This document shows, one piece after another, positions 1,532 through 6,447 of a stretch of DNA of 7,316 nt. Origin of the DNA: a virus (lineage: Duplodnaviria; Heunggongvirae; Uroviricota; Caudoviricetes). The DNA lies in the IMG/VR virus record IMGVR_UViG_2684622618_000023, one strand, 5' to 3'. How positions within the stretch are numbered: the stretch's first letter is position 1; each line of letters starts with the position of its first letter. The notes under the pieces are model-generated. The model made no database searches and was not told the DNA's origin. It was given only the letters and a program-made list of their open reading frames with translations. Made by a program: the position numbers and the translations under genes.

Positions 1532-1950
1532 TTCTCAATCTCTCGATGGCGCAGTGCAGCAGATGCCAGTTGTTCAAGCTAGCACGCAAATTGTAAACCA
1601 GAATGCCAGGAAAAAACAAAACCCGCCGAAGCTGGTTGTGTGCGGTTGCGTTGAAGTCTCCTAGCCAAAGAGTAGCGGTGACCACTCCCCGCCGATAATC
1701 TTAGTTGTTTAATTTCGTAAGCTAACTAGGCTAAAAGCTCTCTGTTGTCTGCCTGTTGTACAATTAACAAAATGAACAACGAACTAGATATACCAACGCC
1801 AGAATGGTGCAACAAATCCCAAACAACACAGCAATGCAACAATAACATATGTTATTTTCCTCTCACGGGATTCAGTCCTGAATTCTCATAAAGCTAATCT
1901 TTTTTTAAAAACATACTGTTAGATCACATGCACTTTCTTTCTTAACATCG

Positions 1951-1978
1951 TTGACTTCGCATGCGAAGCGTTTAAAAT
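1951..1978 (+). promoter_or_regulatory. Candidate sigma70 promoter for the GHKL operon
   Basis: TTGACT at 1951-1956, 16-nt spacer, TAAAAT at 1973-1978; predicted start near 1985, about 45 nt upstream of ATG 2031; AT-rich upstream region. Pattern match only. Confidence 0.4.
1955..1968. promoter_or_regulatory. Perfect 14-bp palindrome CTTCGCATGCGAAG overlapping the -35/spacer of the candidate GHKL promoter (possible operator)
   Basis: cttcgcatgcgaag at 1955-1968 is identical to its reverse complement. The palindrome itself is certain; a regulatory role is inferred from its position. Confidence 0.5.
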
Positions 1979-2030
1979 CAACAATTTGCACTTAAGGTAT
2001 TTATTTTCCCAAACACATAGAGAGTAAATT

Positions 2031-3422
2031 ATGACTGAGAACACGACTCCAACAGCAGACTTTAGTCCTAGTAAAAGATTTTTTGTAAGTATGCTAACTC
2101 GAGATATCGACTTAAACGATGCCATACTTGATCTGCTTGATAACTGCGTCGATGGGGCTTTACGTACAATAAAAGACACAAAAAAAACTTCAAAACCATA
2201 TGAAGGATTTTATGCGAAACTTACGATTAATAAAGATGTCTTTATTATAGAAGACAATTGCGGAGGTATCCCTAAAAGCTTCCGAGAATATGCTTTTAAA
2301 ATGGGACGACCCCATCAAAAAGAAGAAGAAAATGAAGGCACCGTTGGCGTCTATGGTATTGGTATGAAAAGAGCCATTTTTAAAATGGGTAGAGATTGCT
2401 CAATACAATCGAATAATCCCGATGGCGCATTCACTGTAGATATAACACCTGATTGGATCGATGGTGATGGTTGGAAAATACCGATGCACGAGAGTGACTA
2501 TGATAACAAAAATCCAACAGGCACAACTATAGAGATAAAAAAACTCCATTCTAATGTGGCACAAAAATTTAATGAGAGCACATATCTTACTGATCTCTTT
2601 TTACAGATAAAACACTCATTGTCATTTATTATTCAAAAAGGATTTAAAATAGAATTAAATGGAGTTGTTGTTGAACATAATCCGATTAACATCATAACTG
2701 ATCATTCTAAAATAGAACCATACATATATAAAGCTAAAATAGACGATGTTGATATCGATTTAGTTGTTGGCTTCTATAAAAATTTAGAAGATGACAATGA
2801 TGATGTTTTAGAAAAAAGGAGTTCTGATGATGCTGGATGGACTGTCATTTGCAATGACCGCGTTGTTCTATATTGTGATAAGACACATCTCACAGGTTGG
2901 GGCTTTGCTAATGTACCAAGGTTTCATACCCAATTTATAGCAATTTCTGGGGTTGTTCGCTTTACCAGTAAAAACCCAGAAAAATTACCAATAACAACAA
3001 CGAAACGAGGTGTCGATCTTAGTTCTACATTGTACAATGATGTACGAAATAAAATGATTGAAGGGATGATGCATTTTATTCGATTCACCAATCAGTGGAA
3101 AGGTGAGCATCTTGAAGAAGGGAAAAAATTACTTAAGTCAGCTCAGTCACATGAAGCTCAATCTTTATTTGAAATTACCCCACAATCAACTCCAGAAGAT
3201 AAAAAAAATAACTGGTCCAACCCTAATAGAAACAAAAATGAGTGGCGATATACACCTAAGCTGCCTACCCCAGTAAAAAAAAGCTCTACTGTACGAATAA
3301 TCTTCACCAGAGAGAAAGAAGATGTTAAAATTTTATCTAAATATTTCTTTGGACATGAAGATGCTAGCGCTTCTGATGTGGGGATGCAATGCTTTGATAC
3401 GGTGATTGAAGAGGTGAAGTGA
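2031..3422 (+). CDS. GHKL-superfamily (Bergerat-fold, MORC/MutL-like HATPase_c) ATPase, 463 aa
   Basis: ATG 2031 with AGAGAG upstream. N-terminal motifs in the canonical order: N-box DLLDNCVDGA (nt about 2130-2159), G1 box IEDNCGG (D at 2253), G2 box GVYGIGMKRA (MORC-like GxYGxGxK), motif IV PTGTTIEI. The remaining ~260 aa are of unassigned function (possibly an S5-like transducer); no HNH, PD-(D/E)xK or PLD motif was evident by eye. Confidence 0.85.
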   Translation: MTENTTPTADFSPSKRFFVSMLTRDIDLNDAILDLLDNCVDGALRTIKDTKKTSKPYEGFYAKLTINKDVFIIEDNCGGIPKSFREYAFKMGRPHQKEEENEGTVGVYGIGMKRAIFKMGRDCSIQSNNPDGAFTVDITPDWIDGDGWKIPMHESDYDNKNPTGTTIEIKKLHSNVAQKFNESTYLTDLFLQIKHSLSFIIQKGFKIELNGVVVEHNPINIITDHSKIEPYIYKAKIDDVDIDLVVGFYKNLEDDNDDVLEKRSSDDAGWTVICNDRVVLYCDKTHLTGWGFANVPRFHTQFIAISGVVRFTSKNPEKLPITTTKRGVDLSSTLYNDVRNKMIEGMMHFIRFTNQWKGEHLEEGKKLLKSAQSHEAQSLFEITPQSTPEDKKNNWSNPNRNKNEWRYTPKLPTPVKKSSTVRIIFTREKEDVKILSKYFFGHEDASASDVGMQCFDTVIEEVK

Positions 3423-4411
3423 TGTCTGGACAATACATTCCCTATCACTTAAGGCATAATAAGTCTATTGATAGAGAGATTTTTCTCGAAAGCCTAAACC
3501 TCTTAAGCAAAAGACTAAATATTCAAGAATATACATATATAGGTTTTGGTGGTCCGATGCTTGAAGATTTTAGAATCATGCATAATCGTATCGCTCTTTC
3601 TGATATGATTTCTCTCGAAGAACAAGAGTCTACTCACATCAGACAAAAATATAATTTGCCTTATAATTGTATTGATTGTAAGCTAATATCAGCTCATGAC
3701 TTTATTCTTGATTATAGTTTTTCTAAACCATCAATAACATGGTTAGACTATGCCTCCCCGAAAAAAATACAAACGGATCTAGATGATATACACTTACTAA
3801 GTACTAAAGTAAGCTCTTTTGATATTTTGAAGGTCACCTTCCCCATAAATCCTAGTTCTTATTACCAACGTAGAGTTGGAGAAAGTTTAGATATTTTTAA
3901 AGAAGCTTTTATTAATTCATTAAAATCATTGCTTGGGAAAAAGTATCTTGATTTTAATCTTCAGATATCAAATGCAGATCTTTCAGATCGTAAGATTAAA
4001 GCTCTTTTAATACGAATTATTACAAACGCTTTTAGATCAGCAATAGAACGTGGTCTTTCAGGACGTAAGGATAAGATTCAGTATTACCCATTATCCTTAA
4101 ATCAATATAATGATGGCAGTCATACCATGTTGACAATATCAGGTTTTTTCTCCTCAGAACAAGAATATATAGAGTTATCTAAGGCATGCGACCTTTCTAA
4201 CTGGCAATTTTATTCAACAAATTGGGAAGACGTGCAAGAAATAGCAATACCAACACTAACAATTAAAGAAAAGATAAATTTAGATAGTAAACTGCCTGAT
4301 AAAGAAGCATATCAGGCAGCCGCTGAAGAGTTCTCTTTAAACGAAAATGAACGGGATAACTATTATAAATACTATAGGTTATACCCTAACTTCCAAAGAA
4401 TTATGGTTTAA
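3422..4411 (+). CDS. Hypothetical protein (~329 aa), co-operonic partner of the GHKL ATPase; no recognisable family
   Basis: ATG 3422-3424 shares its A with the TGA stop (3420-3422) of the GHKL gene; GAGG at 3411-3414 gives 7-nt spacing. The supplied ORF begins 3 nt earlier at GTG 3419, which has poorer spacing. Ends TAA 4409-4411. Same AT-rich composition and codon usage as the GHKL gene. No catalytic motif could be assigned with confidence; weak D-x-K candidates such as IDCK are not persuasive. Confidence 0.8.
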   Translation: MSGQYIPYHLRHNKSIDREIFLESLNLLSKRLNIQEYTYIGFGGPMLEDFRIMHNRIALSDMISLEEQESTHIRQKYNLPYNCIDCKLISAHDFILDYSFSKPSITWLDYASPKKIQTDLDDIHLLSTKVSSFDILKVTFPINPSSYYQRRVGESLDIFKEAFINSLKSLLGKKYLDFNLQISNADLSDRKIKALLIRIITNAFRSAIERGLSGRKDKIQYYPLSLNQYNDGSHTMLTISGFFSSEQEYIELSKACDLSNWQFYSTNWEDVQEIAIPTLTIKEKINLDSKLPDKEAYQAAAEEFSLNENERDNYYKYYRLYPNFQRIMV

Positions 4412-5530
4412 ATATTCGGGCTGTACTCTTTTATTTAATAAATTGTACAGCCCCTTTAATATATATTCAGCAACTATTGGTGACACGCTATTTCCTATTT
4501 GTCTGAAACTATGCCATTTAGTTACATGAAAGCGAAACCAATCAGGGAAGCCTTGTAATCTAGCAGCTTCTCTTGGTGTAATCACTCTTGGATGATAAGG
4601 GTGGATCGGCCTGACGGCTTGAAAGCTTCCTTTATCTCTAGCGGTTCCCGCCCTTAAAGTCGGGCAAAAACCATTTGGATCTAATCTTGTAGATCTTGAA
4701 ATTTTATCAGTTTCCCCAAAAGATAAGGAAGCATAACGCTCTTGGACGATTTTGCTATGTAATGTTCCGGTACATCCAGATATGATATTATTTTTTAACT
4801 TAGCGATCGATTCTGTATCACCAACATTCCGAGGGATCTGCCCCCATAATTTTTCATAAAATCCCCCTTTTCGATCTTTTTTAATTGTTCGCCAACTCTC
4901 AGAGTCTGATTGCCAATTGGCATCGATAATATCTGGTAATCCATACAAAGCATCTTTTACAGTAACCGGATCAATCATTTTAGGCATAAATACTTCATCT
5001 GAAATATCAAGCTTCAATGATTTTTTTACACCGATAAAAAAATATCTAGTTCGAATAGTTGGAGCACCATAATCAGATGCTTTTACCTTGATGGGATCAA
5101 GAATATCATAATCACCGCTAACCAAATTAAATGCTTTATTTCTAATGCCAGAATATTTCTCTTGCATAATACCTGGAACATTTTCTGCCAAAAAGAATAA
5201 TGGCTGTAATTCTGATACTAAACGGTAGAAATGCATGTAAAGCTGATTCCTGCTATCATCAGGATTCCCCTTGCCTATTGAACTAAATCCTTGGCACGGA
5301 GGACCGCCAATAATACCATCTATGGGCATATCGTTTTTAAAAAAACCCTTAATTATTTCTGCATTTAGTAAAGAAACATCTTCTTGGACGTGCAAACTTC
5401 TTGGAAAATTAATTGCGTGAGTATTAATAGCATGTTGATCAATTTCAACTGCCATTTTAACATCAAATCCAGCACGTGCAGCACCAAGACTTAGACCTCC
5501 AACGCCAGAAAACAAATCTATTACATTCAT
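4379..5530 (-). CDS. DNA (cytosine-5)-methyltransferase, Dcm/M.HhaI-type, 383 aa
   Basis: Canonical C5-MTase motifs in order: motif I DLFSGVGG at the N-terminus (AdoMet binding), motif IV GGPPCQGFS (catalytic Cys codon at 5294-5296), motif VI ENVPG, an RTRYF region (motif VIII-like), and C-terminal GNSVSP (motif X). Start ATG 5530-5528; stop TAA 4381-4379. Confidence 0.9.
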   Translation of the reverse strand: MNVIDLFSGVGGLSLGAARAGFDVKMAVEIDQHAINTHAINFPRSLHVQEDVSLLNAEIIKGFFKNDMPIDGIIGGPPCQGFSSIGKGNPDDSRNQLYMHFYRLVSELQPLFFLAENVPGIMQEKYSGIRNKAFNLVSGDYDILDPIKVKASDYGAPTIRTRYFFIGVKKSLKLDISDEVFMPKMIDPVTVKDALYGLPDIIDANWQSDSESWRTIKKDRKGGFYEKLWGQIPRNVGDTESIAKLKNNIISGCTGTLHSKIVQERYASLSFGETDKISRSTRLDPNGFCPTLRAGTARDKGSFQAVRPIHPYHPRVITPREAARLQGFPDWFRFHVTKWHSFRQIGNSVSPIVAEYILKGLYNLLNKRVQPEYLNHNSLEVRV

Positions 5531-5562
5531 ATAGTTGCAACGTCTCTTATTAGTTTCTATGT

Positions 5563-5571
5563 ATTATAACA
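5563..5571 (-). promoter_or_regulatory. Candidate extended -10 promoter (TGtTATAAT) for the methyltransferase gene
   Basis: Minus strand reads TGTTATAAT (plus 5563-5571). It lies about 33 nt upstream of ATG 5530 with TAAGAGA between as a weak ribosome-binding site. No good -35, which is acceptable for an extended -10. Pattern match only. Confidence 0.4.
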
Positions 5572-5792
5572 CAACTGTTCTTGATGTTTTAACCCCATAA
5601 GATAACCTCATAAAGGCTATCCCTTGAAAATACCGGATCGCATAAATTTAATCTTTCAAAACTACTTGTCTATTAATCGAGCAATTTAAGGTTGTTTTAG
5701 TCATGTCGATACCGACATAGTTAACTAAACCCATTTCATCGTCCAACAAATGGGGGTAATACACTTTGATTTATAGTCGGGTGGGTTTTTCT

Positions 5793-5961: not shown

Positions 5962-6447
5962 TCATCGTGAAACATCCTCCACGCTTATAAGTCCGCTTCG
6001 CTCCAGGTAGTCCATCACTTTATCCGGCAATTTGCAGCCCGGTTTCGCTTTCTTCAGTTGACTAACCAATTGTTTAACCAGCATTGTCAATTCGCGAACT
6101 TGTTTCCCGGGCTCCCCTTTGCCCTGAAGCAGGGCAGCGCGGCAAGCGTTCCATCCCTCAGCATATGTTTCAGTTACACCATCGAGATGGCATGTAAGCA
6201 AATCCATTTCTTCCGGCACTACGGGCGCTGGAAAAACGGCATAGGGTGGCGTCCATTTTGGCGCTTTATCTCCAGCCGAACGCTGCTACCAGTCATCCGG
6301 TTTGTATTCATAAAAATCACCAACTGGCTCTGCTTCCAGCGATGCCAGCGCAATCCGTGCCAGTTCCATTTGTTCACCACGGGTAAGCCCGTTTTCAACC
6401 GGATTTTTAATGAACAATTCAATACGTTCTTTGGTAATAGTGGTCAT
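5962..6447 (-). pseudogene. Phage hypothetical gene with a single in-frame TAG (6288-6286); an intact reading would be about 161 aa. Alternatively two adjacent small ORFs
   Basis: Strong start: AAGGAG 6 nt upstream of ATG 6447-6445, giving MTTITKERIELFIKNPVENGLTRGEQMELARIALASLEAEPVGDFYEYKPDDW, then TAG. The same frame continues protein-like (QRSAGDKAPKW...EEMDLLTCHLDG...SGLISVEDVSR) to TGA at 5962. The downstream part has no convincing ribosome-binding site of its own (GTG 6219 or ATG 6207). Confidence 0.4.

Follow-up and report, generated by a model that had tools for sequence, protein, structure and literature searches.

The stretch of DNA that was analysed (the window, 7,316 nucleotides) was found to belong to the lambda-like prophage Sp10 of E. 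coli O157:H7 Sakai with 100% identity. The minus strand was found to contain phage genes of the nin/Q region, namely those for DUF1367, YbcO and the antiterminator, and an island of three genes was present between these and further nin genes. The island, 4.4 kb in length, was found to be near-identical in approximately 172 complete E. coli genomes. A masked run of N nucleotides was present at approximately 220-268, inside the Q gene. On the minus strand at 96-122, the nucleotides AACCCGCCATTGAGCGGGTT were followed by the presence of TTTTTATT between the Q antiterminator and the phage tRNA genes. This element resembles an intrinsic terminator and could be the late terminator tR', and it was not among the results of the terminator scan. 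A decayed hok/gef type I toxin locus was found on the minus strand at 1640-1905, between the phage DUF1367 gene and the three-gene island. The remnant aligned at 71-78% with an intact hok of a prophage of E. coli E7-1N7 (L244, 1535-1687), and its frame in the window stopped after 21 codons (ORF 1829 to 1764); it is unannotated in the Sakai and PGAP genomes. The nucleotides GCCCTGAAGCAGGGC at 6121-6135 were found to form a perfect boxB-like hairpin with a 5-bp stem in a stretch that contains no annotated gene in the current Sakai record. The boxB of lambda is GCCCTGAAGAAGGGC.

The DNA homology to relatives in other phage and chromosomal contexts was found to span at most 1946-5592, which marks a mobile three-gene cassette of 3.65 kb. 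The left limit of the homology was found at 1946, 5 bp before the -35 hexamer of the GHKL-operon promoter, and the right limit at 5592, in the -35 of the methylase promoter, so that two inward-facing conserved promoters form the exact bounds of the cassette. The GHKL ATPase gene ECs1955 (463 aa, HATPase_c_3; more than 5,000 homologues) was found on the plus strand at 2031-3422, followed by the presence of the Methyltransf_35 gene ECs1954 (329 aa) on the same strand at 3422-4411, and the ATG of the latter overlaps the stop codon of the former (TGATG). The C5 cytosine DNA methyltransferase gene ECs1953 was found on the minus strand at 4379-5530, convergent with the GHKL operon. ECs1954 and ECs1953 thus share their last 33 nt (4379-4411), and the same offset was found in all close relatives; the overlap suggests a possible coupling of the two transcription units by antisense RNA or transcriptional interference. 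The promoter scan placed the promoter of the methylase gene on the minus strand at 5563-5592, with TTAAAA and TATAAT 18 bp apart and an extended -10 TG, and conserved TGnTAnAAT or TAAACT nucleotides were found upstream of dcm in the relatives. The cassette was fully occupied by the GHKL, Methyltransf_35 and Dcm genes, and the statement of the preliminary description that no regulator gene lies inside the module was thus borne out.

The cassette is a moron in the nin region of the lambdoid prophage Sp10. It was found to recur in the nin regions of several different lambdoid prophages, with its orientation relative to the phage early genes unchanged. The flanking phage genes were found on the strand opposite to the GHKL operon in the window as well as in L082, L083/L084, L085, L093 and L241 (L numbers denote the loci compared), and therefore the methylase gene runs in the direction of phage early transcription, and the GHKL operon runs against it.

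More than 200 loci were found to carry the GHKL, Methyltransf_35 and Dcm genes as a conserved triad; they come from many phyla, among them cyanobacteria, Chloroflexi and Firmicutes, and from one archaeal MAG. Among 239 loci, the GHKL and Methyltransf_35 genes were adjacent in 233 and a Dcm homologue was present in 225. The dcm gene was convergent and downstream, as in the window, in 112 of the 239 loci, and it was directly upstream of and co-directional with the GHKL gene in 92 loci from many other taxa. The loci of this second type apparently contain one operon with no separate GHKL promoter.

The methylase ECs1953 was found to match PDB 3g7u, deposited as 'Cytosine-specific methyltransferase' (E = 1.3e-254), and it alone matched known defence-system models; no PADLOC or NCBIfam family was found for the GHKL or the Methyltransf_35 protein, and the PDB sequence searches with these two proteins were empty. 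The AlphaFold model of ECs1954 (pLDDT 89.7) was found to show a confident class I SAM-methyltransferase fold, and a nuclease fold was absent. Its best Foldseek matches were methyltransferases, with TM-scores of only 0.28-0.44. No recognisable nuclease domain was found in the cassette. Since the cassette has no recognisable nuclease and its non-methylase proteins have no PADLOC model, the designation of its genes as restriction-like and toxic, from which the proposal of a tightly controlled promoter had started, is an assumption and not a finding; the premise is unproven, the second protein being, by its model, of the methyltransferase fold.

The promoter of the GHKL operon was found to contain the -35 hexamer TTGACT at 1951-1956 and the -10 hexamer TAAAAT at 1973-1978 on the plus strand, separated by a 16-bp spacer; both hexamers were seen on direct reading and in the consensus scan. 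The promoter lies 53 nt upstream of the GHKL ATG, and its geometry would place the transcription start at 1984-1986, 6-8 nt past the -10. In genome coordinates, this predicted start would lie close to 1,938,671 of Sakai NC_002695.2 (minus strand) and to 2,157,861 of EDL933 NZ_CP008957.1 (plus strand). The site scored 10 of 12 hexamer matches, which was among the best scores in the window, and the number of promoter-like sites in the whole window (21, against 18.5 expected from shuffles) was not in excess. The hexamers are close to TTGACA and TATAAT at a distance within 16-18 bp, and both the hexamers and the distance were retained in the orthologous upstream regions while the spacer drifted. 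The relatives were taken from a graded series of GHKL loci (87-58% identity) in enterobacterial prophages and chromosomes. Further close relatives were not found in the phage and plasmid collections, and the search of genome contigs yielded relatives at 42-47% identity only.

Nine independent lineages (the window, L240, L082/L106, L241/L242, L083/L084, L085, L086, L087/L088 and L161), the GHKL proteins of which were 70-100% identical, were found to contain the pattern TTGAC[AT]-16 bp-TAnnAT at the homologous position, 76-93 nt ahead of the ATG. The pattern occurred once per locus in each relative that was checked. The TTGAC nucleotides of the -35 were invariant across the nine lineages, followed by either T or A at position 6. 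A tenth lineage, L243, was found to contain TTGACA followed by a longer or ambiguous spacer and an uncertain -10. Since the hexamers and their spacing are shared by nine lineages and the homology starts 5 bp upstream of the -35, the identification of this promoter, already proposed in the preliminary description, is well supported, and 1951-1978 is taken as the predicted sigma-70 promoter of the two-gene operon ECs1955-ECs1954. Because the homology begins at 1946 and ends at 5592, the promoter is part of the cassette and forms its left boundary. The more distant loci L091, L093 and L163 (59-66% identity) were found to be without the TTGAC[AT]-16-TAnnAT pattern and to share ACTGTATAAAT(T/A)..CACAT upstream of the GHKL gene. 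These nucleotides may represent an extended -10, a different promoter, or a degenerate or weak LexA box (CTGT-N8-ACAx). No LexA box (CTGT-N8-ACAG) was found in the promoter of the window.

A perfect 14-bp palindrome, CTTCGCATGCGAAG, was found at 1955-1968. It consists of two 7-bp halves with no spacer between them, shares the nucleotides C1955 and T1956 with the -35 hexamer and covers 12 of the 16 bases of the promoter spacer, so that the sequence, the coordinates and the placement first described for it were exact on direct reading. The number of perfect 14-bp palindromes expected was 0.63 for the whole window, where two were observed and where at least one was present in 46% of dinucleotide shuffles. 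The number expected was 0.042 for the 499-bp intergenic region and 0.009 for the 60 bp around the promoter. With a broader definition, in which any perfect 7-bp inverted repeat with a gap of 0-8 bp in the 120 nt upstream of the ATG was counted, 9% of shuffles did as well (p = 0.09). The chance figure depends on the search space, and hence the palindrome is locally unusual and, as a by-eye pick from 7 kb, neither remarkable nor decisive.

The second palindrome of the window was the 14-bp ATAACATATGTTAT at 1842-1855, contained within the perfect 16-bp AATAACATATGTTATT at 1841-1856, inside the hok remnant. The 499-bp intergenic region was found to contain two perfect palindromes of at least 14 bp, as compared with 0.042 expected.

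The palindrome had been proposed as the binding site of a dimeric regulator encoded elsewhere. With up to three mismatches allowed, CTTCGCATGCGAAG had no other copy in the window and none in 49.9 kb of Sp10, for which 2.9 chance matches were expected. The operators of the Sp10 immunity region were compared with the palindrome and were found to be without resemblance to it. The operators of NagC and Mlc (TTCGC...GCGAA) are 23 bp long with an odd centre and A+T-rich arms, and they would be a poor fit to the palindrome. The Rfam scan of 1500-2100 gave one meaningless sub-threshold match only. No plausible regulator gene was found among the ORFs of at least 20 aa in 1532-2030, where the sole gene-like feature was the hok remnant.

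The -35 hexamers had a mean pairwise identity of 0.91 across the nine lineages and the -10 hexamers one of 0.76, as compared with 0.39 in the spacers. The six bases of the palindrome core were identical at 0.29 over the nine lineages and at 0.24 among the six closest, which is approximately the random level. The spacer was found to be TCGCATGCGAAGCGTT in the window, ATCAATCAGAAGTGCT in L240, TCCCTATCGAAGCGCT in L082, TCATCCTTCAAGTGCA in L241, TCACATTGCAAGTGCA in L083, TAGCTGGTGAAGCATT in L085, TACTTTTATCAATATC in L086, TGTATTTTGCAATCAT in L087 and GCAATATGATAAATCA in L161. The eight relatives retained 2, 4, 4, 4, 4, 1, 1 and 3 of the seven dyad pairs when strict Watson-Crick pairs were counted, and the closest relative L240, with 87% protein identity, retained two of the seven. 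The retained pairs were mostly those of the outer CTT...AAG, in which CT is part of the -35, and the inner four pairs were at the chance level in the relatives. The AAG nucleotides at spacer positions 10-12 were found to form a small conserved patch, together with the outer three pairs, in the six closest lineages. Over all lineages, including the window itself from which the tested structure was taken, 54% of the cells were paired as compared with 48% in shuffles, and 53 of 500 shuffles were equal or better.

Upstream of 60 independent family members of the convergent type, in which the GHKL gene has an upstream region of its own, strong dyads were found to be barely commoner than in shuffles (8% at p<0.05). 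A few lineages were found to contain dyads of their own near the promoter. That of L161 (ATATGAT-AA-ATCATAT) lies across the -10, and those of L085 (TGGATTAT-GG-ATAATCCA) and L087 lie just past it. These dyads would keep a small door open for lineage-specific control. From the alignment, the perfect palindrome of the window appears to be an old and weak outer symmetry that was completed by changes private to the O157 lineage. In E. coli, quasi-palindromes are known to be turned into perfect palindromes by template-switch 'correction', a well-established kind of mutation.

Both ECs1954 and ECs1955 were expressed in exponential-phase Sakai in minimal glucose medium, as recorded by microarray (PMC2241611, Table 2). 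Between 4.6 and 5 h, at the entry to stationary phase, ECs1954 changed by a log2 value of -2.61 and ECs1955 by -3.22 (PMC2241611, Table 2). The joint fall of the two genes indicates that they are co-transcribed or at least co-regulated, and since the operon is regulated with growth phase, some trans-acting control exists. Both genes were contained in a large growth-associated cluster of approximately 1,000 ORFs (PMC2241611, QT cluster 1), and as so many ORFs behave alike, the drop in expression points to no specific factor that binds the palindrome.

On this evidence, the region at 1951-1978 is probably an ordinary sigma-70 promoter, the spacer of which is palindromic by chance, and not a repressor site. 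RNA polymerase would recognise TTGACT and TAAAAT at their distance of 16 bp, and the palindrome would be the sequence that this lineage happens to carry between them. The outer CTT...AAG symmetry would have been completed by lineage-specific changes in a freely evolving core. A repressor that binds the palindrome would be unnecessary to explain the locus, and the order of the genes may already set the timing. The architecture of the cassette, rather than an operator, would then determine when the non-methylase genes are expressed with respect to the methylase, and we infer that no protein binds at the palindrome.

The alternative that the palindrome is a lineage-specific operator was considered quite unlikely. 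A dimeric repressor encoded outside the cassette, in the host or in a different O157 prophage, would occupy it and shut out RNA polymerase, for example as stationary phase begins. The perfect 7+7 dyad lies between the hexamers and overlaps the -35, where a repressor would compete with RNA polymerase, and it is a G+C-rich perfect 14-mer within 60 bp of an A+T-rich promoter, where approximately 0.009 were expected. Expression of the GHKL operon falls 6- to 9-fold as the cells enter stationary phase, L161 and L085 carry dyads of their own near the promoter, and the outer three pairs with the AAG nucleotides persist in the six closest lineages. The dyad is however neither conserved nor co-varying in the related promoters, even at 85-87% protein identity: the core is at random identity and 1-4 of the seven pairs are kept. 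No regulator gene was found in the cassette or the intergenic region, no further site was found in the window or in 50 kb of Sp10, and the cassette contains no C-protein-like gene. The family shows no significant enrichment of dyads, approximately 40% of its members have a GHKL gene without a promoter of its own, and the growth-phase drop on which the operator would draw is shared with the other ORFs of the large cluster.

Control by the methylase of the cassette was considered very improbable. The palindrome would then be the target of this enzyme (for example GCATGC or CATG), and methylation would switch the GHKL operon and couple its expression to the protection of the genome. Methylation-sensitive promoters are known in some restriction-modification systems; the palindrome contains GCATGC with four cytosines per strand, and the methylase is a real folded enzyme, as its match to PDB 3g7u indicates. 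Against this, GCATGC and CATG were absent from the spacers of relatives with 67-83% identical methylases, and the target specificity of the cassette methylase is only putative. The Pfam DNA_methylase match extends over residues 1-361 of the protein, which begins with MNVIDLFSGVGG. As it starts directly at catalytic motif I, it is without an N-terminal DNA-binding region, a feature that tells against the methylase as well as against the operator. A role of the palindrome in nucleic-acid structure, as a cruciform or as a hairpin in antisense RNA that reads through from the phage early promoter, was considered extremely improbable; such a structure would cause transcription to pause or terminate, or would mark a recombination junction. 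The minus-strand RNA of 1945-1985 was found to fold to -12.3 kcal/mol (z = -2.2) and the palindrome lies 9 bp inside the edge of the cassette, but the plus-strand fold was no better than shuffles (z = -0.9), a 7+7 palindrome without a loop could pair at most 5 bp, and the palindrome is unconserved in relatives with the same cassette edge. No intrinsic terminator, that is, a G+C-rich hairpin followed by a T-run, was found at 1940-1990 on either strand; no U-run was present on either strand, no T-run was found after the dyad, and the terminator scan was blank here. That the O157 cassette promoter newly acquired its dyad and that the GHKL operon answers through it to a host or prophage repressor encoded elsewhere or to the C5 methylase of the cassette is unlikely; if true, control would have arisen de novo in a methylase-linked GHKL module that is itself uncharacterised.

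An IHF-core-like motif, AATCAACAATTTG (consensus WATCAANNNNTTR), was found on the plus strand at 1976-1988, where it overlaps the end of the -10 and the predicted transcription start. The window contained two matches to the IHF core motif, as compared with 0.87 expected. The nucleotides ATCAA-N4-TTR were retained in six of the nine lineages with variable N4 nucleotides in the alignment. As a candidate site for protein binding, which is speculative, this motif is better conserved than the palindrome, and it would be compatible with the stationary-phase drop.

The reading of the palindrome as a chance feature of a sigma-70 promoter removes a tempting and unsupported regulatory story and leaves in its place a well-supported annotation of the ECs1955-ECs1954 promoter. 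The triad is an uncharacterised methylase-linked system, and it is the cassette, not the palindrome, that would repay experiments.

Among known systems, the C-boxes of type II restriction-modification systems, with which the preliminary description drew its analogy, resemble the locus in that, within a module linked to a methylase, a palindrome accompanies the promoter of the genes other than the methylase. They differ from it in that a C gene, which is a small helix-turn-helix gene upstream of or overlapping the restriction gene, is absent from the cassette. The operators of those systems are tandem or paired, whereas a single dyad was found here, inside the promoter spacer and not upstream of a C/R operon, and it is unconserved among homologous cassettes. 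The self-regulating C5 methylases of the SsoII/EcoRII type contain an N-terminal DNA-binding region, unlike the methylase of the cassette.

The GHKL ATPases of the MORC/paraMORC type that are linked to cytosine methylases were described in predicted restriction-modification operons (Iyer, Abhiman and Aravind 2008, PMC2292703). The cassette shares with these operons a GHKL ATPase linked to a DNA cytosine methylase, a sporadic distribution and mobility. The partner in the cassette is, in contrast, the Methyltransf_35 protein with its predicted methyltransferase fold and not a helicase or a recognisable nuclease. By analogy, the module can be grouped in general with the GHKL (MORC/paraMORC) ATPases linked to cytosine methylases, and its place in any named paraMORC family would be putative.

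The sigma-70 promoters of prophage morons differ from the promoter of the GHKL operon in that the spacer here is a perfect palindrome and the start site is a predicted one only. The locus shares with them a near-consensus -35 followed by a good -10 at 16 bp, as well as genes that are expressed in the lysogen. As in those morons, the promoter borders an accessory cassette inserted into the nin region and is directed against phage early transcription.
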